Virus record (IMG/VR): IMGVR_UViG_3300034106_003048
DNA: 20,000 bases
Source of the DNA: an uncultured virus (IMG/VR IMGVR_UViG_3300034106_003048)
Lineage: Duplodnaviria > Heunggongvirae > Uroviricota > Caudoviricetes
Strand: one strand, 5' to 3'
The position numbers and the translations under genes are program-made. Below are positions 1 through 9,180 of the stretch, piece after piece. The notes below the pieces were generated by a model that worked only from the letters and a program-made list of their open reading frames with translations, did not search any database and was not told the DNA's origin. How positions within the stretch are numbered: the first letter of the stretch is position 1; each line of letters starts with the position of its first letter.

Positions 1-147
1 AAAAACAAATATACGACTCTTTTATAGAAAAGTATAGATCTAATCGCATGACAGTAGAAGAATTCGCTGGAATCATGATAGTTGTCTGGAATACTACTCC
101 TCACAGAGCCATAGACAATATAGGAGGACAATACATGGGTCCTACAC

Positions 148-336
148 TTATGAAGCCCAAAGACTAATATGATTTAGTGCTTTATTGAATAAAGCCATCT
201 CCATGGGATTCCTAGGAGGAATTAGTCTGACCTTTTGATTCTTACGCAAATAGATATAACTGGCTATAATCTCTAGCCCTTCGGGTACTGATACGTTTCC
301 TTCTCTTAAGCGCAAGTTTATTTCCTCCTTAGACAT
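148..336 (-). CDS. hypothetical protein (62 aa)
   Basis: ATG-started ORF directly after the stop of the 337-459 ORF; co-oriented with the left-arm genes. Confidence 0.7.
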   Translation of the reverse strand: MSKEEINLRLREGNVSVPEGLEIIASYIYLRKNQKVRLIPPRNPMEMALFNKALNHISLWAS

Positions 337-459
337 TTATTCTAAATTAAGAGGTATAAACTCTTCTTGGCTTACTTCTATTGAGTAAAACCTTTTTTTA
401 ACCATCAAATAAAAAGTACTTTCTTTTTGATTTGATTTATATTCTGATACTCTTTCCAT
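337..459 (-). CDS. small hypothetical protein (40 aa, MERVSEYKSNQKESTFYLMVKKRFYSIEVSQEEFIPLNLE), possibly leaderless
   Basis: Translated by hand; ATG lies 4 nt after a TATATTTG -7 box and its TAA abuts the next ATG. Confidence 0.6.
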   Translation of the reverse strand: MERVSEYKSNQKESTFYLMVKKRFYSIEVSQEEFIPLNLE

Positions 460-463
460 AGAA

Positions 464-495
464 CAAATATAGTAAATATTACTTACTATAACAAA
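464..495 (-). promoter_or_regulatory. Bacteroidota-type housekeeping promoter
   Basis: Minus strand TTTG (495-492), 20 nt, TATATTTG (471-464); fits the -33 TTTG / -7 TAnnTTTG consensus. Confidence 0.7.
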
Positions 496-837
496 AAAGA
501 TTAACAAAAAAAGTTATTTATTTTTTCAACACCAAGTATTTGAACTCGGTGAAAGCTTGAGGAGAATGAATAGTGTGACTATTCCTGAAACAGGTTGCAC
601 ATCATTCATTACGCCTAACTTGATCCTATTGGTTTTTGAACTACGGAGCCAAGCCTTCGTCGAATGTCTTAAATCGTGGATTAGCCGTTTAAGATTGGAG
701 TCAACTTTTCAGCTTCTAATCAGCCTTAGTATCCCTTTCTCTCCTCTGTGTCAAGGTTGGGTATGATACATTCCCCCGCTACCCTTAAAGTTTCTGTCTG
801 CGGTGCACTTCGCGTCTCTACACAGAAACCGTTTTAC

Positions 838-1224
838 TTATTTGTCTGTGTCGCTACCAGGTTCGTCATCCTCAGACCAGTAATCTTCCCAGTCTTCATC
901 TTCCCAATCGTCAGAGTCTTCGTCAAGTAAGTCTTCTAAGTCTATGTCTAAGAAGTCAGCAAACTCAATTATATCTTCTACAGAGTCAAGCTTAGTTACC
1001 TCAAATTTTTCTGGGTTCAGTCCCATGTCCTTGAATTCTTGGAAAAGAACCTCAAGCTCTTCGTCTGTTCCGTAAAAGGTAGTTTCGATGTCTATGGAGA
1101 CTTCAGGAAAAAGTTTTTTAATCTCTTCCATGTGAGGCGCAAGATCATGGTCTTCCACCCAGATATCATCTCCTTGCTTTTTAAAAGGAATTCCTTTTTC
1201 TTCTAAGAATTCTTCAAACGACAT
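838..1224 (-). CDS. highly acidic hypothetical protein (128 aa)
   Basis: About 48 D/E versus 9 K and no R by hand count; D/E/W-rich tail; own promoter upstream. Confidence 0.8.
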   Translation of the reverse strand: MSFEEFLEEKGIPFKKQGDDIWVEDHDLAPHMEEIKKLFPEVSIDIETTFYGTDEELEVLFQEFKDMGLNPEKFEVTKLDSVEDIIEFADFLDIDLEDLLDEDSDDWEDEDWEDYWSEDDEPGSDTDK

Positions 1225-1236
1225 AACTTAGTATTA

Positions 1237-1266
1237 CAAATATAATACTTTAAAAAAGGAATGCAA
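1237..1266 (-). promoter_or_regulatory. Bacteroidota-type promoter
   Basis: Minus strand TTG (1266-1264), 19 nt, TATATTTG (1244-1237), 12 nt before the ATG at 1224. Confidence 0.65.
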
Positions 1267-1359
1267 CTCTACTTTGAAACATTTTTCCACTTGAACCAGT
1301 GAAGCCCAATACAGACTAGAAAGTAGCCTAAAAAAATTATTAATCCTGTCATGTTTTTA

Positions 1360-1554
1360 TTATGTCTTTCTTCCAAAGGTTATGTTGTCTCTGACCTTTA
1401 TGTCTTTGTGGGTAAACTGCCACATCTCTCCGTTATCTAGAATTACCGTATAAATAGTATCGGTCTCGTGTCCGTAATCTGTAACCAGCCAGACTATGCC
1501 TTTTCCTTTAGGAGTTATTACTTCTAGTCTATTGTGGGGTTCGTATATTGTCAT
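1360..1554 (-). CDS. hypothetical phage protein (64 aa)
   Basis: Protein-like ORF (VITPKGKGIVWLVTDYGHETD..GEMWQF) overlapping the end of the transferase gene. Confidence 0.75.
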   Translation of the reverse strand: MTIYEPHNRLEVITPKGKGIVWLVTDYGHETDTIYTVILDNGEMWQFTHKDIKVRDNITFGRKT

Positions 1555-2212
1555 CTCTTTTACATAGGGTTAAATAAAGTTCTTTGTCTGTGGACCACTC
1601 TTCGCCTGTCCACCACTCAAATCCTTTGTAGTCTGCTTTATAGGAAGAGCTTGATTCGTATCCTCCTAAAAGGTATAGGTGTTCACATTGAAAAAACTGG
1701 GCGACTTTGCACTCATAAAACTGAGACACATTACCAAGAGATAGTTTGGGGTTTTCATAGTCCCACAAAAACTGATAGGATACAAAAGCTCTACCTGTTT
1801 GGTCTCGGTATAGCTTAAAGATGTTTGCTCCTATAACCTTATTGTCTTGGTGATAGAGGATACATTCAAATCCTTTAAAGTCGTTAAGGTTTATGTCTCG
1901 TTTAAATCCATGTCTTTCTACGTACTTAAGATAGATAGGTTGTAAGACTTCTAGTATTTCATCAGACACAAAATGCAGGGAGTAGTCAACCTGCTTACTT
2001 AGTTTTTTAACAGTCTTAGTAGGTTGGTATTCCTCCACTCTAAGTCTTACCGACCTTAAATTATACCAATAGTCTCCCCACTCTACCCAACCTTCTTCTA
2101 AATACCTAAGATAAGTAGTATCCAAAGCTACTCCCTTGGGATCTGAATAGATGAAGTCTTGTTGAGAAACTTTACCAAATCCTTCTATATGGTTAAACTT
2201 TACTTTTATCAT
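1529..2212 (-). CDS. ATE1/Bpt-family aminoacyl-tRNA-protein transferase (227 aa)
   Basis: ATE_N-like LEEGW..G.YWY..SVRL; ATE_C-like YLKY...H, WDYENPKLSLG, HLYLLGGY, YKADYKGFEWW..W. Confidence 0.8.
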   Translation of the reverse strand: MIKVKFNHIEGFGKVSQQDFIYSDPKGVALDTTYLRYLEEGWVEWGDYWYNLRSVRLRVEEYQPTKTVKKLSKQVDYSLHFVSDEILEVLQPIYLKYVERHGFKRDINLNDFKGFECILYHQDNKVIGANIFKLYRDQTGRAFVSYQFLWDYENPKLSLGNVSQFYECKVAQFFQCEHLYLLGGYESSSSYKADYKGFEWWTGEEWSTDKELYLTLCKRDDNIRTPQ

Positions 2213-2254
2213 AGTTTATTATAGTCTATCACAACTTAGGGTAATACAATAATA

Positions 2255-2262
2255 CAAAGATA
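2255..2262 (-). promoter_or_regulatory. possible -7 box for the transferase operon
   Basis: TATCTTTG on the minus strand 42 nt upstream of the ATG at 2212; no -33 TTTG seen. Confidence 0.4.
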
Positions 2263-2492
2263 CGGGTACTTTATAAAAACCCCCCACCCTATTTTTAAAT
2301 TTTAATTTAGCCCCACCCCTTAGATTTTAGATTTTAAAAAATTTTTCCCAATTTTAGGTTCCCGAAAATTTTTTCAAAATTTTAGAAAAGGGTTTTATGT
2401 ATAGGAGGGTAGACATCACCTTATAAAACTACCCCCATCAAATAAGGTGTGTGGGTGTACCCCGCACATCGGTTTATGCTAATACTTGACAT

Positions 2493-2972
2493 ATGTCGGC
2501 AACAACACAAACTCGGACACGTGGTAAGCAACGTGGCATTTCTCGTTCGTTGAACGAGAACCCTGCAAATGCTACAAAGAAACTCACAGTACATGGTACG
2601 GTTAAAGAATTCTTCAAAAAGCACGGACTCGTTCCTGAAAGCGAAATTCGTGCTTCAAAGAATGAATTTAATCCTGCGCCAATTCTTCGCTTTCGTGTTA
2701 CAAAAGACGTTCAATTAGGAAACGATAAATTGTACACAGTAAAGAACGAAGACGGTCAGATTGCGAACTACGGTATGGTTTTGTCAAAGAACGCTTCGGC
2801 ATATTTGGCAGACGGCGATACCGAAGACCTTGCTTGCGTAGGTGTGCAAATTACCGCAGAAGATTGTGATATCCTGAAAGTAGCCGAACGTACTAACGAC
2901 GACGGCGAATATCAGGGTTTCATCATCATCACCAACAGCGGTAACGAATTCGTCGCCGCCAACCTTTGGTGA
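2493..2972 (+). CDS. hypothetical protein (159 aa), first gene of the rightward arm
   Basis: Longest ORF in the region, with strongly biased codons (CGT, AAC, GAC, TTC); followed by strong stem-loops. Confidence 0.8.
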   Translation: MSATTQTRTRGKQRGISRSLNENPANATKKLTVHGTVKEFFKKHGLVPESEIRASKNEFNPAPILRFRVTKDVQLGNDKLYTVKNEDGQIANYGMVLSKNASAYLADGDTEDLACVGVQITAEDCDILKVAERTNDDGEYQGFIIITNSGNEFVAANLW

Positions 2973-3073
2973 TGCGTGTGTGAGTTTCGGGTTGTCTTGC
3001 GTAGTCCTCGCAAGAGCAATTGTCGTCGGGTCTCGACAGCAACCCAAATTCCAAATACCGTATGCGGTAAACA

Positions 3074-3136
3074 AAATGCGAATGCGTAAATGCAGAAATA
3101 CAAACTGCAAAAAACGCTTCGCATTTTTTTTGTTTC
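3074..3136 (+). terminator. stem-loop with T-tract, probable intrinsic terminator
   Basis: AAAATGCGAA(T)GCGT ... ACGCTTCGCATTTT followed by a T-run; inner TGCAG/CTGCA stem. Confidence 0.5.
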
Positions 3137-3292
3137 AAAACAATCGGTATTCATTCGTTGCACTCATTCATACGTGTTTAGTTTTGTTCCATTGCATTAC
3201 ACAAAACTTTCTATTTGGGGACGCTTCCTTCCATATTTGGACAGTGACTATGGCAACAATCGAGTATTTTCCCCCTTTTACAAGATTTCTTT

Positions 3293-3420
3293 GTAAAAAG
3301 TGGTGTTTTCCCGGGAATTTCGGAGACAAATCGAATAAAATCTACGTTGATAAGTGGTAAAAAGTGGTAAAAAGTAGTCATTTTTACCCCCTTATTACCT
3401 ATGAATTGGTAAAAAATGGG
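3293..3420. repeat. 10-bp periodic AAGTGGTAAA repeats
   Basis: AAGTGGTAAA at 3352 and 3362, degenerate copy at 3372; GTAAAAAGTGGT at 3293; TGGTAAAAA near 3407; inverted TTTTTACC at 3381. Confidence 0.65.
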
Positions 3421-3499
3421 GTAGTGAAAAGTCAAAATTTTGCTGAACAACGTGGCTAACTTGAAAAAAGGGGTTTATTTGACTCTAATAAAGATATTT

Positions 3500-4570
3500 A
3501 CTCATATCGGGTAAAAGGGGTTCTACAGCCTTACTGTAGATAGATATAACAGGCGTTGACTGAAGCTTGTAACCGTGTCATAGCGATAGGTAGTGTGATT
3601 ACTACATTAATAGGCACGTGAGTTTCTTGCGATATGGGCAAATTTATCAATTGCTGATGTATTGCATTAAACAAGGAGGGAGTACAGGGTCTACAAATTG
3701 CCTGTACTCTCAGATTTTTTATGACGGGTGATGGCCAACATCAATAAAACAAAAGTGCAAGGCAGTAATCCTTGTCGCAACTAATAAGGCTAACCAATAA
3801 TGCCTTATACATGTTCCCTTGCGAATTATCTGATTTGCAGGGGAACTTTAAAAATCTTCTCTTTGTGCTAACCCTTTTGGGTGAATAGTTGTAGGTACGT
3901 ATTAAAATAACGTCCTATTGACCAGGTTGAAATAACCGTAGAATATCTATAACTAAGTGCGGAGAAAGTGAGTTTGTTTGGGCATTGTTCTCACTCTAAT
4001 CTAGTGAATGCATCCTATCCAGTAAGTTACTGGCGTATCAGAGAAGATACAGTAATAAAAACTCAAATAATACATTGACTGTAAATAACCGAGGGGGAGT
4101 CTTTGACCTTTGTACTCTATGCGGTTTACATGCAAGTAGAAATACTTGGGGGGGTTGTCGATGTTAAACAAAGTACTAATGCACCATTCTCACTTCCCAA
4201 GGGTGAGCAGTTGTAATAATGGTAAATATAGAATGTATCTATAAAATCTACGGACATTATTACAACTGAGTGCAGAGGGGTAAAACAAACAACTAACGTT
4301 GCAGAAGAGCAATAGTAGAATAAGAACGTATGCTTATTTGAAAACAATCTGTTGTTTGTTATTTAAAAAACTCAATAACTTTCCAAGATGTTGAGGACAC
4401 CAGTTTCTTATTGACATAGTGATTTTAGCGGTCGTGCTATCAGTGTAAATCTGATAATGGAGCACATCAATTCCATGTAAAAACGTTAGATATTGAACTA
4501 ATGTATTGGATTACAGCTCTGCAAATCATGTAACTTAGAGTCTATGCAGCTAGCACAAATAAGCATAGAT
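3500..4570 (+). ncRNA. putative long structured ncRNA or array of ncRNA modules
   Basis: No convincing ORF; many long stems whose G-U pairs favour the + strand (3501-3638, 3679-3711, 3784-3808, 3813-3846, 3860-3965, 4080-4130, 4180-4280, 4285-4359). Confidence 0.55.
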
Positions 4571-4631
4571 GCTCATGCCGTTAAAGAAATCAATAAGTTT
4601 TAGGTGTAAAACACAAATTAAAAAATTACCT

Positions 4632-4844
4632 ATGAAAATATTTGCAATAAACAAAAGGTTTTGGAATTCAAACCATGAAGGTTGGAAACAATGGATTGAG
4701 TCTGAAATAATTTCTTATCATGCTACTGAAGAAGGAGCAAATGCTAAAATATCTTCTTTTGATGATAAAGATGAAGAAATTACAGATGAGTATGGCGATT
4801 TAAGTTCTGTTTACTTCATATCTTGTATTGAAGTAAAAGAATAA
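4632..4844 (+). CDS. hypothetical protein (70 aa)
   Basis: ORF-track 4569..4844; ATG 4632 after an A-rich leader is the likelier start (MKIFAINKRFW). Confidence 0.7.
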   Translation: MKIFAINKRFWNSNHEGWKQWIESEIISYHATEEGANAKISSFDDKDEEITDEYGDLSSVYFISCIEVKE

Positions 4845-4995
4845 AAGATGAAAGAAGAATAGAGTATTTCCGAAAACTGATTTAACGAGTAGGAAAAAGG
4901 GTAAGTCTTCTATTTTAGCGAAAATTGCACTGAGTAGCTAGGGTATATATATAAGAAAGTCAGGCATGCAGTGCTATGCATGTGGTTAAATCATT

Positions 4996-5041
4996 AAAGG
5001 GAGTGACCTATAGGATCGTAGGTAGCCCTTTTGCTTTTTTT
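4996..5041 (+). terminator. hairpin plus T-tract upstream of a tRNA-like element
   Basis: AAAGGG..ACCTAT/GTAGGT..CCCTTT followed by TGCTTTTTTT. Confidence 0.45.
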
Positions 5042-5137
5042 GAGAGAGTGGCGAAATTGGTTGTGTCAATGGCGAACTAACTATGATTATTCAAATGTTA
5101 GCGTACCATATTACAGGTTCGAATCCTGTCTCTCTCA
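5042..5137 (+). ncRNA. tRNA-like element without a canonical anticodon arm
   Basis: Acceptor GAGAGAG/CTCTCTC + A; TGGCGAAATTGG D-region; T-arm ACAGG-TTCGAAT-CCTGT; middle is an irregular CTAAC/GTTAG stem with a 15-nt loop. Confidence 0.75.
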
Positions 5138-5301
5138 CAAATCTATACGCATGGGTACTGGTGTGTAGTGCATAAAGACTGATCAACTTTATGTACACGT
5201 GTATCGCTTAGCATAAGGGCAACAAACAATGCAACAGTTTCTAATAACGTATAGCTAACGTGTTAGAACGGGACCTGAGCAAGTCTATAAACTGCTTATT
5301 T

Positions 5302-5374
5302 GGCCCTTTCGTCTAATGGTTAGGACAACAGGTTTTCATCCTGTAAATGGTGTGTTCGATTCATCCAGGGGCTA
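5302..5374 (+). tRNA. tRNA-Glu(TTC) with irregular T-stem, CCA not encoded
   Basis: GGCCCTT/AGGGGCT acceptor; GTC-TAATGGTTAG-GAC D-arm; ACAGG-TTTTCAT-CCTGT anticodon arm (TTC 5335-5337); TTCGATT T-loop. Confidence 0.9.
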
Positions 5375-5387
5375 CTAAATTAAAATT

Positions 5388-5459
5388 ATGAGTTACGTAA
5401 TAGCTATTGCGATTGTTTTCATATTCGCAGCATGTATCGAGTCAAATAAAATAAACTAA
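5388..5459 (+). CDS. micro-ORF, hydrophobic peptide (23 aa, MSYVIAIAIVFIFAACIESNKIN)
   Basis: Translated by hand; A-rich leader, hydrophobic stretch ending in a lipobox-like FAAC. Confidence 0.45.
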   Translation: MSYVIAIAIVFIFAACIESNKIN

Positions 5460-5468
5460 ATAAATACT

Positions 5469-5618
5469 ATGAAAAAGACAACTTATCAAACTCAGAAGAA
5501 CTCTGGCGAAAAGATTCCAGAGAGAGTAAGCGAAGGGGTTATGCAGCAAACTGCAAAAGCCTATGTTAAAAAATTGACCGATAAATTCGGTCCAAAAGGT
5601 GGGTTTAGGTGTTTTTAA
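5469..5618 (+). CDS. small basic hypothetical protein (49 aa)
   Basis: Translated by hand (MKKTTYQTQKNSGEKIPERV...GGFRCF); typical AAATACT-ATG-AAA start. Confidence 0.6.
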   Translation: MKKTTYQTQKNSGEKIPERVSEGVMQQTAKAYVKKLTDKFGPKGGFRCF

Positions 5619-5646
5619 TCTAACCCACCTCCCTTATGGGGAAAAT

Positions 5647-5760
5647 AGTCAGGTGGCGGAACGGCTAAACGCACCGAATAGTGAAACGGAGTGGAACAAA
5701 CCGCAATATAGTTGAAATACACACAAGGTCCACATGCAGGTTCGAATCCTGTCCTGACTA
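5647..5760 (+). ncRNA. tRNA-Leu-like element with remodelled anticodon/variable region (114 nt)
   Basis: Acceptor AGTCAGG/CCTGACT + A; D-arm GCG-GAACGGCTAAA-CGC; T-arm GCAGG-TTCGAAT-CCTGT; middle is a CCG/CGG minihairpin plus a GTGGA/TCCAC stem with a long loop. Confidence 0.8.
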
Positions 5761-5787
5761 CAAATTAAAAAACTAACTAAAAAAACT

Positions 5788-6891
5788 ATGGAACAAAGAA
5801 TTGAATTACAGAAAATTTATCTTGGGTGGCAAGAGTTTCTTGCTATGCCTGAAGGGATAAAGAAAAATCTAGCGTATTCAAAGAAGATACAAGGCGTAGG
5901 TTGTTTTGTTTCTTCTATTCTAAAAAAAGAAGATGGTACTATCCATTACTCTAACACGGAATACCGTGTCTCAAAAGGTAAAGTTTATTTTCTTAAAAAA
6001 GGTAAGAAAAGCGGATTTACTGTTGACCCAAAGGGTAAGATGAAGATTTGGTTTGGTAAGAAACTAAATGAGTTTCCAATTAATTATGAATTTTTTGAAG
6101 CTTTAAAACAAGAATGGTTTAAAATAATTTATTTTAATTATGTTACACCGGCTGTTCTTGGTAAAGTGATTGCAGGAAAGATTACTAATCCTACTGATTT
6201 AGCCAAAGCAATCTTAAAGGCTTACAGAATTCAAGGTTCTCCTGCGTTTTTCTTAAAAGCCATTAATAACCAATCAGGACACTTTAGCAAAAGTCTTTTC
6301 TTAAAAGGTATTAAGGTTGCAAAGAACTTTGACCACTTTCTTCTTTACTTTGCTGAAAACGGAGCCTATAACAGTAGTTTGTTTGACATGATAGACCAAG
6401 CAATTATTTTAGAATCTAAAATAGATTTTAACTGGTCTACAAAACGAATTGAAGAAGAACACAACAACTTTACTGCTCAACTAATGGATTTAGAATCAGA
6501 CGAGTTATCTGATGAACCTCTTGAATGGCTTGAAAAGTTAAATCTTAATCTTCCAGAAAGTTGCAGACTTCTTAAATCACAAAAAGAAGTTTATAAAGAA
6601 GGAAAAATGATGCACCATTGTGTTTACACAAACTATTGGAACAGTATTGTTTCTCAATCTTTTATTGCAATTAGTGTTAATTACCAAGGATCTAATTATA
6701 CTTTGGGAATTAATTACAATAAAAATTCAGCTCAAAACAGATTTGAATTTAATCAATTGTCAGGCAAATGTAACAATCCTTCGCCACAAGAGTTAAGAGA
6801 TCAAATGAAAAACTGGATTGAAAGTCTAAACTCTACATCTAAAATTATTGAAGAATGGTCTACAATAACCGAAGAAGTATTACCCTATTAA
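5788..6891 (+). CDS. PcfJ-like domain protein (367 aa)
   Basis: C-terminal EVYKEGKMMHHCVYTNY...YTLGI...QLSGKCN matches the PcfJ EG..M.HCV..Y signature. Confidence 0.8.
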   Translation: MEQRIELQKIYLGWQEFLAMPEGIKKNLAYSKKIQGVGCFVSSILKKEDGTIHYSNTEYRVSKGKVYFLKKGKKSGFTVDPKGKMKIWFGKKLNEFPINYEFFEALKQEWFKIIYFNYVTPAVLGKVIAGKITNPTDLAKAILKAYRIQGSPAFFLKAINNQSGHFSKSLFLKGIKVAKNFDHFLLYFAENGAYNSSLFDMIDQAIILESKIDFNWSTKRIEEEHNNFTAQLMDLESDELSDEPLEWLEKLNLNLPESCRLLKSQKEVYKEGKMMHHCVYTNYWNSIVSQSFIAISVNYQGSNYTLGINYNKNSAQNRFEFNQLSGKCNNPSPQELRDQMKNWIESLNSTSKIIEEWSTITEEVLPY

Positions 6892-6941
6892 ACTAAAAAA
6901 CTAAAAAACTAAAAACAAATTAAAAATTAATTAAAAATACC

Positions 6942-7280
6942 ATGAGAAAAATGTTTCAACCCGAAGAAGACAAAGTGATCTTACAGAATGTATCACTTTA
7001 CCCTAACAATCTTGCTTACTCTTTTGAGTTATCAGCAGAACAATTAGGAAGAAACGCAGCAGGCTGTTCTGCTCGTTATTACGCTAGATTGCGTTCAAAA
7101 GAAACTATGATTGCAGTAGCTTCGTCAAATGGCGTAGTTACTCTGAACAATCAAAAGAACGCAAGGCGTGACTTTAGTACTGATTTAACTGATCAAGATC
7201 GTCTTGAATTTGTTCAAGAGATGATCAGAAAGATGCCAAGGAATATGAAGAAAGAACTTGCTAAAATCTTATTCTCTTGA
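6942..7280 (+). CDS. Myb/SANT-like (RsfA-like) DNA-binding protein (112 aa)
   Basis: N-terminal FQPEEDKVIL...SFELSAEQLGRNAAGCSARYY resembles the Myb-like repeat of RsfA-family regulators. Confidence 0.6.
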   Translation: MRKMFQPEEDKVILQNVSLYPNNLAYSFELSAEQLGRNAAGCSARYYARLRSKETMIAVASSNGVVTLNNQKNARRDFSTDLTDQDRLEFVQEMIRKMPRNMKKELAKILFS

Positions 7281-7282
7281 GT

Positions 7283-7633
7283 ATGAGAACTTTCAATCTC
7301 AATTGTGCTCTGGGATTGATTATCTTTGGTATTTTGGGACTACAGGCATCTGCTTGTAGTACCCAAACTGCCAAGGTAGTCGACAGTCTCCCAAAACTTT
7401 GTATTGATCCAAAATTTGGAAAACTTACAAAGGATGACTCTACTTTTGTTTTCAACGTAATTAATCGTGAAAAGCCGATTAAACATCATATCATAAAGGT
7501 TGACAGTGGTGTAATTTTAACAATAGTTAAGAAAAATCTTGAACAGGTTTACGTAACTAGAAACGGTGCAATAGATGATTATTACGAAATAGAAAACGGA
7601 AAGGTAGTACTTTATTGTAAAGAATTTGAATAA
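7283..7633 (+). CDS. putative secreted protein or lipoprotein
   Basis: Hydrophobic N-terminus ending in ASAC; ATG 7283 preferred over TTG 7277. Confidence 0.65.
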   Translation: MRTFNLNCALGLIIFGILGLQASACSTQTAKVVDSLPKLCIDPKFGKLTKDDSTFVFNVINREKPIKHHIIKVDSGVILTIVKKNLEQVYVTRNGAIDDYYEIENGKVVLYCKEFE

Positions 7634-7636
7634 GTT

Positions 7637-7879
7637 ATGAGAACATTTTTATTAGTCGTACTTTATTCTCTTATGATTATGCTTATAGTCGGCATTGTAG
7701 GACTTGTAGGATGTCAAGATGAAGAAGTGCCAAAAAAAGAAAGTCATAAACTTAGTGATTTTGGCTATAAAATTGAAATTGTAACAATAGATTCTTGCGA
7801 ATATGTTTTTGGACCTTGGGGAAATGGAGCAGTCTTAACCCATAAAGGTAATTGTAAAAATCCTATTCACAAAAAGTAA
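7637..7879 (+). CDS. putative lipoprotein (80 aa)
   Basis: Hydrophobic leader ending in LVGC; C-terminal IDSCEY...LTHKGNCKNPIH motif. Confidence 0.75.
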   Translation: MRTFLLVVLYSLMIMLIVGIVGLVGCQDEEVPKKESHKLSDFGYKIEIVTIDSCEYVFGPWGNGAVLTHKGNCKNPIHKK

Positions 7880-7888
7880 CAGAAATTT

Positions 7889-7975
7889 GGCCGGATCGTC
7901 TAGTGGTTTCCATTTGGATATAAGGACGCTGGATTTTCATTCCAGAAACGGTAGGTTCGATTCCTCCTCCGGCTA
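7889..7975 (+). tRNA. tRNA-Glu(TTC) with enlarged D-loop and bulged T-stem, CCA not encoded
   Basis: GGCCGGA/TCCGGCT acceptor; CTGGA-TTTTCAT-TCCAG anticodon arm (TTC 7936-7938); GG[T]AGG-TTCGATT-CCTCC T-arm; D-loop insert containing TCCA/TGGA. Confidence 0.85.
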
Positions 7976-7990
7976 CTAATTAAACTAACT

Positions 7991-8404
7991 ATGAATAAGT
8001 ACATTAAACCCACAAAGAAAGTAGTTATAGACGGCAAAGTCTATACTGCTGTAAGAGAAAGGAATTACATTCCTGAACCTGAAACTAAACCCAGGAGAAT
8101 TACCGATGAGTATGTTAGTCCAAAAGCTAACAATCCTATTGTTAAGACTCTTGAAGAGATTATCGAATCTAACTTGAATGATTATTTTAAATCTGTTGAG
8201 TTAGAAATTTCTGAATTAAAGAAAGAATCTCTCACCCTAATTATTAGCGGATATACCGAAAAAGGTATTGACATGTTAAAACATGCTAATCAATTAGAAA
8301 CTGAAATTACCTCTGCTAAAACCAAAGCAAAGATTGATTGGATGAGTCGTATCTTAATTAGATATAACGACTTGACTAAACAAATTGTAGGCAGAGAATT
8401 CTAA
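7991..8404 (+). CDS. hypothetical protein (137 aa)
   Basis: ORF with A-rich leader and helical C-terminal half. Confidence 0.8.
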   Translation: MNKYIKPTKKVVIDGKVYTAVRERNYIPEPETKPRRITDEYVSPKANNPIVKTLEEIIESNLNDYFKSVELEISELKKESLTLIISGYTEKGIDMLKHANQLETEITSAKTKAKIDWMSRILIRYNDLTKQIVGREF

Positions 8405-8414
8405 CGCATTTCAT

Positions 8415-8448
8415 AGTTACCCCGTCCAGGTAGTGCTGAGGGGTAACT
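8415..8448 (+). terminator. intergenic stem-loop
   Basis: AGTTACCCC/GGGGTAACT inverted repeat; weak T-tract. Confidence 0.5.
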
Positions 8449-8466
8449 TAAATTTAACCCAATCTT

Positions 8467-8835
8467 ATGAGTATTAATAAATTAAAGTGGGCAGTAAGAA
8501 TACTTTCACTATTGCTTGTATTCATTGCTGTACTCTGGGGATTTAACATTGGTTTATCCAATCCTTTTAATCCTTGGAAAGCAATTGCTTTTGCAGTTGC
8601 AGGCATTTGGTTGTTTATGTTTGCCGTAGACAATCTCTTTATTCGGTTTTTAGACAAACCAATCAATTTTACTAGAGAAGTAACAGAGTCAAAGTATTTA
8701 ACAGAATACGATGATTTTGATCTTGCTTCAAAACCAGTTTTACCAGAAACTCCTCAAAAAACTAAAGTTAAAAGGGGACCTTACAAAAGAAAAAACTACT
8801 ACAAAAAAAGAAAAAGTAGTTTTTATTATATTTGA
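8467..8835 (+). CDS. membrane protein with two TM segments and a basic C-terminal tail (122 aa)
   Basis: Two hydrophobic stretches; K/R/Y-rich tail (KRGPYKRKNYYKKRK). Confidence 0.75.
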   Translation: MSINKLKWAVRILSLLLVFIAVLWGFNIGLSNPFNPWKAIAFAVAGIWLFMFAVDNLFIRFLDKPINFTREVTESKYLTEYDDFDLASKPVLPETPQKTKVKRGPYKRKNYYKKRKSSFYYI

Positions 8836-8838
8836 AAT

Positions 8839-9180
8839 ATGAAAGGTAAATTACAATGCCAAGATAGAAATTGGTACGTTTCTTTTGAAGAGAAAGAATT
8901 AAAAGTACATCCTGTTGATTCTGCTGTATTAGATACTTTTGCTGCACATCTTTGTGAAACAGAATTAGAATTTGAAATAGTAGATGAGTTTAGTCATCCT
9001 GAATTTTATAAAGATACTCCTATTTATCAAGGACAAGTTTACGCAAAATTAGTAGACAATGATCTTATGTGGGAGATAATCTTTTATGAGTATCGTACCA
9101 GCTATCGTACTCATTATCTTACTTTGGAGAATTGGCTTAAATCTAGATTTAAAATCCCTAAAAGAATAACCTATGTCTAA
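8839..9180 (+). CDS. hypothetical protein (113 aa)
   Basis: ORF in tightly packed + strand run. Confidence 0.8.
   Translation: MKGKLQCQDRNWYVSFEEKELKVHPVDSAVLDTFAAHLCETELEFEIVDEFSHPEFYKDTPIYQGQVYAKLVDNDLMWEIIFYEYRTSYRTHYLTLENWLKSRFKIPKRITYV

Follow-up and report, generated by a model that had tools for sequence, protein, structure and literature searches.

A mosaic of small structured RNA modules, two of them twister-like, ahead of the rightward genes of a freshwater crAss-like phage

Few viruses of the human gut are as abundant as crAss-like phages, which also occur commonly in lakes, and to our knowledge the control of their early genes is poorly known. In one of them, phi14:2, long intergenic regions are transcribed rightward and early into RNAs of unknown function that exceed most genes in abundance and stay abundant, according to the available text of the report (bioRxiv 10.1101/2020.03.07.982082). 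Small self-cleaving RNAs also occur in phage genomes: theta (minimal HDV-like) ribozymes lie beside tRNA genes of gut phages in the accessible part of PMC10879173. Twister ribozymes, as set out in the accessible part of PMC5408937, have helices P1, P2 and P4, called essential, two pseudoknots, a U-A cut site and, optionally, P5, and the same text gives P1 as dispensable for activity. At the other end of the size range, the GOLLD and ROOL RNAs are phage-associated and often found near tRNA genes.

The window (the whole stretch of 20,000 nucleotides that was analysed) belongs, judging from its sequence matches, to a freshwater (lake-water) crAss-like phage; matches to the element described below fell in crAss-like phages only. 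A gene-free kilobase block occupies a switch of gene strand from minus to + at about 3450-4633, with the minimum of cumulative GC skew at about 2400-3400. Like phi14:2, as far as its available text goes, the window has more than 1 kb free of genes close to where rightward early genes begin; gene order is all that is shared, as there is no similarity of sequence or model (at E up to 10 our model of the 3' element, R1, has no match in phi14:2 bases 1-9000), and ribozymes are not described in that text. The likeness to theta ribozymes, in the part of the source available, is that of small self-cleaving RNAs (cleavage being predicted here) in phage non-coding DNA near tRNA genes; theta is a different class and sits directly beside tRNAs, whereas here the nearest tRNA-like gene lies 430 nt beyond the element.

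The block is not one large RNA but a mosaic, and its small modules turn up in varied combinations in other crAss-like contigs. We think it probable that it forms the non-coding leader of a rightward, probably early, unit, built of exchangeable RNA modules of which two, of twister type, would cut in cis; behind this reading stand the observed helices, their covariation, a + strand preference, a wide distribution and RNA contigs over 4192-4575. If the modules do cut themselves, they would offer a concrete route for processing a leader into a stable RNA and an mRNA whose 5' end is defined, and the predicted cut sites are exact. If the reading is true, a known ribozyme class has large phage-specific branches that escape the standard RNA catalogue, and one twister branch lives without a stem thought essential. 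The literature searched contained no paper describing these modules, and a motif search in the smaller supplementary files of two candidate structured-RNA catalogues returned nothing.

A reading of the window from its letters alone (hereafter the sequence-only reading) had placed structured RNA at 3500..4570, in a stretch without a credible ORF. The absence of ORFs holds under three genetic codes: in the ORF listing the + strand of 3450-4568 has no ORF of at least 40 aa (the longest is 37 aa), the ORFs on the minus strand measure 40-73 aa and all start with TTG or GTG, and decoding TAG as Gln, or TGA as Trp (table 4), gives at most 103 aa, on the minus strand only. Reassigned stop codons as the cause of the missing ORFs were rejected, since neither code opens anything convincing. 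That the block encodes several very small proteins and that its stems are incidental is barely credible: there are + strand ORFs of 20-37 aa and the minus strand ORFs just mentioned, but all the small + strand ORFs except one start with TTG or GTG, substitutions among homologues preserve base pairs and not reading frames, and differences in spacer length are not divisible by three.

Every stem that had been named was recovered by an inverted-repeat search, among them the following; the proposed extent was too short at its 3' end, as the element continues to about 4615.

3487-3509 / 3630-3652, + strand: stem
3668-3688 / 3701-3721, + strand: stem
4208-4221 / 4255-4268, + strand: perfect 14-bp stem, the P5 arm of module H (below)
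4284-4293 / 4351-4360, + strand: 10-bp stem

Folding compared with shuffled controls is uneven along the block. In 120-nt windows of the + strand, z runs from -3.8 to -7.5 at 3621-3920 and reaches -5.0 at 4161-4280 and -4.4 at 4281-4400, against values near 0 at 3921-4220 and 4401-4640; the mean for the block is -1.65 versus -0.54 for 40 coding windows (Mann-Whitney p = 0.058).

The sequence-only reading had likened the block to GOLLD and ROOL without being able to match it. Structured non-coding RNA of the + strand without an Rfam match is what the analysis bears out; a single large RNA of that kind is not. Neither family's covariance model scores in 3440-4630, even at E up to 10, and Rfam searches of the window, of sub-stretches and of short family members, at gathering and at lax E-values, gave only chance-level miRNA, snoRNA and SAM/SAH matches (10.9 bits). 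Like GOLLD and ROOL the block is phage-associated and near tRNA genes; unlike them it is modular and has no one conserved large fold. That the whole 1.1 kb nevertheless acts as a unit, a large non-coding RNA of a new class comparable to GOLLD, ROOL or OLE, is very improbable. A gene-free kilobase near tRNA genes, its many closed stems and the abundant long non-coding RNAs that phi14:2 makes at a syntenic place (in the available text of that report) would suit such an RNA, but no large-RNA family of Rfam scores, RNA contigs cover the last 380 nt only, two terminator-like hairpins lie within the block, and its modules are separate and reordered in other phages, a close relative included. Distinct patches match different contigs among the homologous loci fetched by BLAST or pattern, and in that relative (locus L260) a flanking gene is 97% identical, yet the patches stand in a different order and 3470-3714 is missing at the matching place; the block is thus a mosaic and not a unit. 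The 227-aa flanking gene, used as a search handle, retrieved distant relatives that have no M1-M2 element (below), and a metagenome scan added one close relative, L260. The PcfJ-like flanking gene retrieved four contigs, each ending 0-820 nt upstream of the gene.

The 5' part of the block (3450-4170), with two terminator-like hairpins and patchily conserved modules, is less certain than the rest. Its features are:

3497..3642, + strand: module A, a putative multibranch domain closed by CUCAUAUCG / CGAUAUGGG (fold and inverted repeat)
3678..3720, + strand: 11-bp hairpin (3678-3688 / 3701-3711) followed by six U at 3715-3720 (inverted repeat)
3755..3808, + strand: module C, a two-hairpin motif with invariant loops CAGUAAU and UAACCAAUAAU (covariation)
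3813..3846, + strand: module D, a 15-bp hairpin with U-rich sequence after it and a small hairpin at about 3867-3889
3958..4066, + strand: module E, three short hairpins (homologues and fold)
4066..4176, + strand: module F, a conserved element rich in G runs, just ahead of module H (homologue alignment)

Covariation tests were passed by module C and by the two larger elements, modules H and M1-M2, treated below. In module C (alignment A9, ten distinct sequences) pairing holds in 99.2% of cells and in 35-52% when the partners are slid; double-sided changes occur in eight of the 12 pairs, and the motif scores 0.648 for covariation versus at most 0.163. The hairpin and U run at 3678-3720 look like an intrinsic terminator or attenuator; 3664-3726 folds with z -3.43 (none of 200 shuffles as good), and a terminator scan passed over the hairpin because its 12-nt loop exceeds the scan maximum of 8. 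Module D folds well (3809-3895, -29.9 kcal/mol, z -5.25) and is conserved in L260 only, at 95% identity. Module A, at -38.6 kcal/mol and z -1.58 (12 of 200 shuffles equally good), has no homologue among the fetched loci and is absent from the matching place in L260. The evidence for module E as a conserved structure is weak: its fold has z -1.48, its homologues are L023 (85% over 105 nt, directly upstream of that locus's M1), L220 and L260, and double-sided changes seen by eye in alignment A6 are GUGAG/CUCAC versus GUCAG/CUGAC and GUAUC/GAUAC versus AUAUC/GAUAU. Module F is known in eight distinct copies, the window's included, with long invariant stretches, and its inner hairpin is wholly replaced in L145 and L139; its minimum-energy fold (4066-4177) is no better than shuffles (z -0.86). 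A known ribozyme was considered for module F and set aside, as it bears no resemblance by eye to the pistol consensus and has no Rfam match.

Immediately downstream lies the first twister-like element.

4174..4282, + strand: module H, candidate type-P1 twister ribozyme (pattern and covariation)
4174-4176 / 4280-4282, + strand: P1
U4177 / A4178, + strand: predicted cut
4180-4184 / 4270-4274, + strand: P2
4189-4193 / 4203-4207, + strand: P4
4194-4202, + strand: L4 loop, UUCCCAAGG
4208-4221 / 4255-4268, + strand: P5 arm
4275-4279, + strand: GAGGG

The pattern of module H, whose search form fixed the loop letters, CCC included, occurs in at least 120 IMG/VR stretches, with 112 distinct copies among the matches listed. 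An alignment of 66 sequences (A4; P5 inserts of 20-75 nt, 15 sequences with a displaced 5' half) has 89.2% of cells paired against at most 48% with slid partners, and a covariation score of 0.257, versus at most 0.098, that none of 500 shuffles reached. P4 is the most thoroughly exchanged helix (all five pairs changed on both sides, 90.3% of cells paired in the 66 sequences); in P2, with 86.2% of cells paired, three of five pairs change on both sides (CG/UA, AU/GC, CG/UA), and in P1 all three do, yet just 64.6% of its cells are paired. The two pseudoknots are outside the reach of covariation because both are invariant: in T1, CCC and GGG can pair in 94.9% of cells without variation, the CCC being fixed by the search pattern, and in T2 the loop GG could pair with the C(C) after P2, where one C doubles in the fifth P2 pair. 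The window has U4177 A4178 A4179, and TAAT precedes P2 in copies with a canonical 5' half; 24 of 80 distinct copies have no 5' half adjoining the loop.

The order and spacing of these parts (P1, U-A-A, P2, P4 closing the loop, an optional P5, P2', five bases, P1') are what liken module H to twister, since they fit the description in PMC5408937. Compared with the type-P1 twister (Roth et al. 2014, reviewed in PMC5408937; Rfam clan with RF03160), as covered by the accessible part of that review, module H is alike in P1, U-A-A, P2 and P4, in a loop CCC able to pair with GGG after P2 (T1), in an arm at the P5 position and in G-A-G-G-G before P1'. It is unlike in the length of P5 (from 13 nt up to about 180 nt, its base of 8 bp invariant), in a P1 of just 3 bp in the window, in one extra U in the loop, and in T2 loop bases GG where the twister consensus has GC. 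The module H loops also resemble the letters conserved in the twister consensus, U-CCC-AA-G in the loop and G-A-G-G-G. This match of letters suggests a putative homology; the PMC5408937 text in its accessible part names the features without letters. At E up to 10, Rfam twister models found neither 4160-4300 nor six loci whose P5 arms are short. From its sequence, module H looks like a twister of type P1 in which the P5 arm is long, and self-cleavage is predicted for it.

Module H is followed by a hairpin domain and by the second twister-like element, M1-M2.

4283..4362, + strand: long hairpin domain closed by ACAAACAAC / GUUGUUUGU (inverted repeat and fold)
4362..4615 (about), + strand: M1-M2, a twister-like core with P1 closed and P4 absent (covariation)
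4371-4376 / 4388-4393, + strand: local hairpin of M1-M2 competing with P2
U4380 C4381 C4382 with G4393 G4394 A4395, + strand: T1
4387-4390 / 4610-4613, + strand: P2
4391-4395, + strand: GAGGA
4396-4399 / 4603-4606, + strand: P1
4405-4409 / 4593-4597, + strand: P3, a stem extending P1 beyond an invariant internal loop
4410-4592, + strand: variable domain, 183 nt
U4607 / A4608, + strand: predicted cut

The hairpin domain folds at -19.3 kcal/mol (z -3.52, none of 200 shuffles as good) and has few homologues, with nine BLAST matches over 4300-4340. M1-M2 is shared between this lake phage and human-gut crAss-like phages: at least 116 IMG/VR stretches and 15 gut crAss-like reference records carry the M1 pattern, and M2 follows it at a distance of 12-187 nt in 120 of 127 cases, four of the seven exceptions being loci cut short. 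Across 107 distinct sequences (alignment A2), 98.2% of cells are paired against at most 45% with slid partners, and the covariation score is 0.253 versus at most 0.077; model R1 gives the window's copy 97.6 bits. All four pairs of P2 are paired in 100% of cells and two change on both sides (CG 91/UA 15 and AU 91/GC 14); by P2 type the 107 sequences comprise 90 of CA/UG, 14 of UG/CA, one of UA/UA and two wobble variants. For the outer pair of T1, 84 of the 107 have C-G and 23 have U-A, never broken, and both states are found with both P2 types; the other two pairs are invariant. Between P1 and P2 there are invariably three bases (U-A-A) opposite five (G-A-G-G-R), and the closed P1 holds the invariant internal loop AGUUU/UUUUA. 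Relative to L040, 14 of the 47 pairs predicted for the variable domain show compensation, with z -1.73 for 4405-4600. The competing hairpin is kept as well, its sixth pair running through U-A, U-G and C-G.

Circularly permuted twisters (types P3 and P5), in the accessible part of PMC5408937, resemble M1-M2 in that a loop closes its P1, and M1-M2 retains P2, T1 and the U-A-A / G-A-G-G-R loop with compensatory changes. It differs in being open at the place of P4, and not in P3 or P5, so that no P4 is possible alongside P2: one base only separates the loop motif from the P2 strand, and the sole local hairpin takes three of the four P2 bases, which makes P4 and P2 mutually exclusive. The 5-by-5 internal loop of P1, the 12-187-nt variable domain and a local hairpin that competes with P2 are further differences. 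Having no P4, M1-M2 is not classed as a twister member. At E up to 10, Rfam twister models matched neither 4350-4630 nor L045's minimal copy of 88 nt, nor, on stretches of 116-141 nt, either of the two modules or their short members. Pairing of the M1 local hairpin with the GGR after it as an H-type pseudoknot was discarded on geometry, since it leaves no linker. A two-part promoter made of M1 and M2 was likewise rejected because the spacer varies (12-187 nt) and is closed by a covarying stem.

Could these hairpins serve as non-catalytic cis-regulatory RNA? A phage or host protein might bind the shared UUCCCAAG loops, for antitermination as at lambda nut or HK022 put sites, or as at a translational operator; alternatively, the two rival folds of M1-M2 might act as a switch on the first early gene. 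We judge this unlikely: the set of helices, their order and the three-versus-five loop spacing match twister in two modules, none of which a simple protein-binding hairpin needs, T1 covariation ties the loop to the bases after P2, and no candidate binding protein was found. The idea is not without merit, as invariant loop letters over covarying stems are typical of protein-binding hairpins, two same-strand copies of the loop motif stand 186 nt apart (TTYCCAAGR has four matches in the window versus 0.88 expected), and the element heads a long co-directional gene block. M1-M2 moreover keeps both of two mutually exclusive pairings, its internal loop AGUUU/UUUUA is invariant where the twister consensus is not known to require one, and Rfam detects no ribozyme.

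An improbable alternative is that the block acts as DNA, being a replication origin, a pair of divergent promoters or a packaging site whose pairing occurs in single-stranded DNA or cruciforms. It would account for the position at a strand switch adjoining the GC-skew minimum, for iteron-like AAGTGGTAAA repeats at 3352-3375 with a third copy at 3404, and for the frequency with which relatives' contigs break nearby; the repeats and the skew minimum, however, lie upstream of the block and outside it, and a promoter-like scan is at chance (10 found versus 10.4 expected). The covarying stem that closes the M1-to-M2 spacer of variable length also speaks against DNA, as do RNA-library contigs over the 3' part and not the flanks. 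The sequence-only reading had noted that G-U pairs favour the + strand, and the tested helices agree: G-U cells outnumber A-C cells by 80 to 41 in module H (A4) and by 103 to 4 in M1-M2 (A2), where a single, possibly unreal pair supplies 84 of the 103 and its removal leaves 19 versus 4. The excess in M1-M2 indicates one RNA strand.

As to transcription, RNA-library contigs cover part of the block.

4192..4575, strand not assigned: stretch under contigs from four lake-water RNA libraries (comparison over 2800-5800)

All four metatranscriptomes have contigs matching the window only within this stretch, five of them exact and one with two differences. Contigs without differences are 4192-4429 (library X21), 4193-4440 (X22), 4257-4436 and 4425-4575 (X20) and 4258-4409 (X19); the second X19 contig, 4380-4556, has the two differences. 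These are assembled contigs that carry no ends, strand or level, and DNA can occur in RNA libraries. No contig covers 2800-4191 and little covers 4620-5300; assembled contigs drop rare sequence, so the empty 2800-4191 gives nothing firm on 5' transcription. The starts at 4192 and 4193 fall inside P4 rather than at the predicted cut and are more likely branch points of the assembly graph. On the sequence, the span of the contigs, within 4177/4178 and 4607/4608, fits an excised RNA of about 430 nt and an mRNA starting 25 nt before its ATG.

In the preferred reading, that of a self-cutting leader, the leader would begin just past the strand switch and the GC-skew minimum, and its small folded modules would be swapped independently among phages. 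Module H would cut it in cis at U4177/A4178 and M1-M2 at U4607/A4608, the latter having retained the twister active-site loop (U-A-A opposite G-A-G-G-R), P2 and T1, lost P4 and closed P1 with a variable domain. The two cuts would free a structured RNA of about 430 nt, which would accumulate, and leave the downstream mRNA with a 5'-hydroxyl end 25 nt before the ATG. A bolder version, which we offer only tentatively and hold to be more doubtful than not, makes M1-M2 a P4-less, P1-closed twister heading the rightward genes of many Crassvirales, human-gut Suoliviridae included, which has a fold switch and, together with module H, would excise the stable ~430-nt RNA. The switch would set the local hairpin against P2 plus T1 and so time self-cleavage and the fate of the first early mRNA, and the swappable inner domain of the excised RNA might carry a phage-specific function.

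The gene that would receive the processed end is:

4633..4844, + strand: first ORF of the rightward genes, 70 aa when read from ATG 4633 (ORF listing 4569-4844)

ATG 4633 is the likelier start since M2 (4595-4615) overlaps the longer ORF 4569-4844, and the product has no PHROG or Pfam match. Among 78 distinct tails downstream of M1-M2, 65 have an ORF of at least 30 aa within 400 nt, and in 32 of those 65 the ATG lies 21-59 nt past the predicted M1-M2 cut.

The gene-free block at ~3450-4615 is genuinely structured RNA made up of separate modules, so that the sequence-only reading, which had proposed back-to-back structured RNA modules with large phage RNAs as precedents, stands as regards structure but not as regards a large single RNA. 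The stems it named are all present at 3500..4570, and its view that the block holds no credible ORF is borne out on the + strand, where 3450-4568 is free of any ORF of at least 40 aa; the minus strand has 40-73 aa ORFs only, starting with TTG or GTG. Reassignment of stop codons (TAG as Gln, TGA as Trp) was tried and rejected, as nothing longer than 103 aa was opened in the block, and that on the minus strand only. A search of the block against Rfam gave no match, either with Rfam's own cut-offs or with E relaxed to 10. Better folding than in shuffled controls held for parts of the block: on the + strand, z (fold energy relative to shuffles, 120-nt windows) is below chance over 3621-3920 (-3.8 to -7.5) and 4161-4400 (-4.4 to -5.0), with values close to zero for 3921-4220 and 4401-4640, and the mean for the block (-1.65) is only marginally lower than that of the coding background (-0.54; p = 0.058).

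The phage itself is, by its DNA matches, a freshwater member of Crassvirales, because the only matches to the window in the phage collection were 15 records of human-gut crAss-like phages, limited to 4352-4411, and 18 lake-water metagenome runs carry 0.57-0.99 of the sampled words of the window's own DNA. ORFs lie on the minus strand up to ~3450 and on the + strand from ~4633 on, and cumulative GC skew is lowest at ~2400-3400; the block therefore heads the rightward gene block, just past the divergence point. At the strand switch, adjoining the skew minimum, are iteron-like direct repeats AAGTGGTAAA (3352-3419; 2.4 copies in tandem, then a third at 3404), which may mark an origin or divergent promoters.

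Alignment of the window with ten reference genomes revealed two conserved motifs, M1 (4362-4411) and M2 (4593-4615), which each reference genome carries past the strand switch, in a 0.5-2.2 kb gap without annotation. The M1 pattern occurs in at least 116 IMG/VR stretches; among the matches listed, 120 of 127 M1 copies have M2 after them, 12-187 nt away (185 nt in the window), and in four of the seven loci with M1 alone the sequence ends early. When homologues were collected, as had been proposed, the M1-M2 helices were found to covary: across 107 distinct sequences, a nested model of 15 pairs had 98.2% of cells paired (26-45% with slid partners), with a covariation score reached by none of 500 shuffles. 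The outermost helix is CA/UG in 90 sequences, UG/CA in 14, UA/UA in one and a wobble variant in two, and the stem closing the variable spacer has at least five pair types at two positions. The spacer is, on its predicted fold, structured itself, with 14 of 47 predicted pairs retained by double-sided changes relative to a 76% identical phage contig (L040). In ~18 loci (e.g. L109, L099, L071, L031, L037) one shared, unrelated 25-nt sequence replaces the M1 5' half and conservation starts at TCCCAAGA, a recombination boundary within M1-M2.

Beside M1, window 4165-4306 recurs in other contigs (local BLAST), and this stretch contains module H (4174-4282). According to a review, twister ribozymes have essential stems P1, P2 and P4 and optional stems P0, P3 and P5, form the pseudoknots T1 and T2, are cut at a U-A step, with a conserved A lying between P1 and P2, have a conserved G in the active site, and also occur circularly permuted (PMC5408937). 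Module H agrees with the twister in feature order and spacing:

4174-4176 / 4280-4282, + strand, P1
4177-4179, + strand, U4177-A4178-A4179 directly after P1
4180-4184 / 4270-4274, + strand, P2
4189-4193 / 4203-4207, + strand, P4, closing the loop
4208-4221 / 4255-4268, + strand, arm at the place of P5
4275-4279, + strand, G-A-G-G-G, its GGG able to pair with loop CCC

The loop letters are, as we take it, the conserved letters of the published twister consensus. Rfam twister models gave no score on module H or six short-armed relatives. The module H pattern was found in at least 120 stretches, with 112 distinct copies among the matches listed; in an alignment of 66 sequences picked for inserts of 20-75 nt (27 pairs tested), 89.2% of cells were paired, compared with 31-48% with slid partners. 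Double-sided change was seen in all five pairs of the hairpin with loop UUCCCAAGG and in three of five in the outer stem, and T1 and T2 are invariant across copies. The perfect 14-bp stem noticed earlier exists and is the variable arm of module H, conserved in its 8-bp base only. Sequence comparison makes module H a probable candidate twister-type ribozyme. Three observations count against membership: the negative Rfam result, the invariance of T1 and T2, and, among the matches listed, 24 of 80 distinct copies (including L146, L149, L158, L160, L165, L172, L182, L191, L198, L203, L207, L213 and L217) in which the 5' half flanking the loop is missing. Of these, 14 have a corresponding 5' motif 85-322 nt upstream, which would fit insertion of a large arm before the loop. 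Another phage contig with module H (L236) has a weak match to the Pistol ribozyme at 90-147 (25.4 bits, below the gathering score of 34.5; E 0.34).

M1-M2 also resembles a twister core in its sequence: its outermost helix, in the place of P2, is followed directly by G-A-G-G-R and a hairpin-closed helix, after which come U-A-A and the partner strand, and, as in permuted twister types, P1 is closed by a loop. The base preceding loop CC and the R of G-A-G-G-R covary, as T1 predicts (C-G in 84 and U-A in 23 of 107 sequences, no exceptions), and each state is found with either P2 type. Filing M1-M2 as a twister was nonetheless rejected, because P4 and P2 cannot coexist where the loop motif and the P2 strand are a single base apart, because a local hairpin, possibly standing in for P4, takes up three of the four P2 bases and is itself retained (sixth pair U-A, U-G or C-G), and because the closed P1 bears a 5-by-5 internal loop that never varies. 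M1-M2 may represent a twister variant without P4, a switch, or both, and as a twister-type ribozyme it is a possible candidate. Eight contigs (L022, L028, L044, L046, L048, L053, L078, L080) carry a second TYCCAAGR motif on the same strand 424-603 nt downstream of M1, possibly another twister-like module within the early genes.

Covariation supports a third motif, module C (3755-3808), within the 5' 700 nt: in ten distinct sequences, 99.2% of cells are paired and eight of 12 pairs compensated. Two hairpins look like terminators or attenuators:

3678-3711, + strand, strong hairpin, U-rich sequence after
3813-3846, + strand, strong hairpin, U-rich sequence after

Modules E (3958-4066) and F (4066-4176) have homologues but fold weakly or into no clear structure, and module A (3497-3642) has no homologue among the loci compared. 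A close relative (L260; flanking gene 97% identical) lacks 3470-3714 at the corresponding position and carries 3715-3811 at another place.

For 3300-5300, six metatranscriptome runs contain 11-15% of the words sampled. Four lake-water RNA libraries (X19-X22) were mapped as contigs onto 2800-5800, where five of six window-matching contigs have zero differences:

4192-4429, X21 contig, no differences
4193-4440, X22 contig, no differences
4257-4436 and 4425-4575, X20 contigs, no differences
4258-4409, X19 contig, no differences
4380-4556, X19 contig, 2 differences

No contig in these libraries fell on 2800-4191, and downstream there were only X19 4739-4889 and pieces from other organisms on tRNA-like parts. 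The probable function of the block is processing of an early leader via predicted cleavage, in which cuts at 4177/4178 and 4607/4608 would release a 430-nt RNA; since the covered span falls between the two predicted cut sites, the contigs, which reveal neither ends nor strand, fit such a stable product. At 4192/4193, where two contigs begin, the assembly probably branches. X19 contigs also connect 4218-4225 directly with 4258-4259 and so leave out the 14-bp arm's loop, which may reflect strain variation or an artefact at the inverted repeat.

The crAss-like phage phi14:2 has long intergenic regions, close to where its rightward genes start, that are transcribed early, abundantly and persistently (bioRxiv 10.1101/2020.03.07.982082). 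The phi14:2 record has a gene-free 1.7-kb stretch after g004, in which R1, our search model of M1-M2, found no match. The literature searched gave no account of these motifs from crAss-like phages, nor was there any motif match in the covered part of the supplementary files of two structured-RNA catalogues.

Downstream, ARAGORN made a sole call, tRNA-Glu at 5302-5375, alongside which are three tRNA-like features:

5042-5137, tRNA-model match, 33-nt insertion in the anticodon region, 32.2 bits
5642-5766, tRNA-like gene, 7-bp acceptor stem, normal T arm, long odd interior
7889-7975, tRNA-model match, 16-nt insertion in the D loop, 48.4 bits

Neither ARAGORN nor the Rfam tRNA model called 5642-5766; a weak PreQ1 match (5731-5782; 19.3 bits) coincides with its T arm, and many RNA contigs from other organisms have only 5733-5767 in common with the window. 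Four IMG/VR contigs (L011-L014) with relatives of the PcfJ-like gene (5788-6891) all stop 0-820 nt upstream of that gene, and these assembly breaks seem to fall in this mosaic, repeat-sharing leader.
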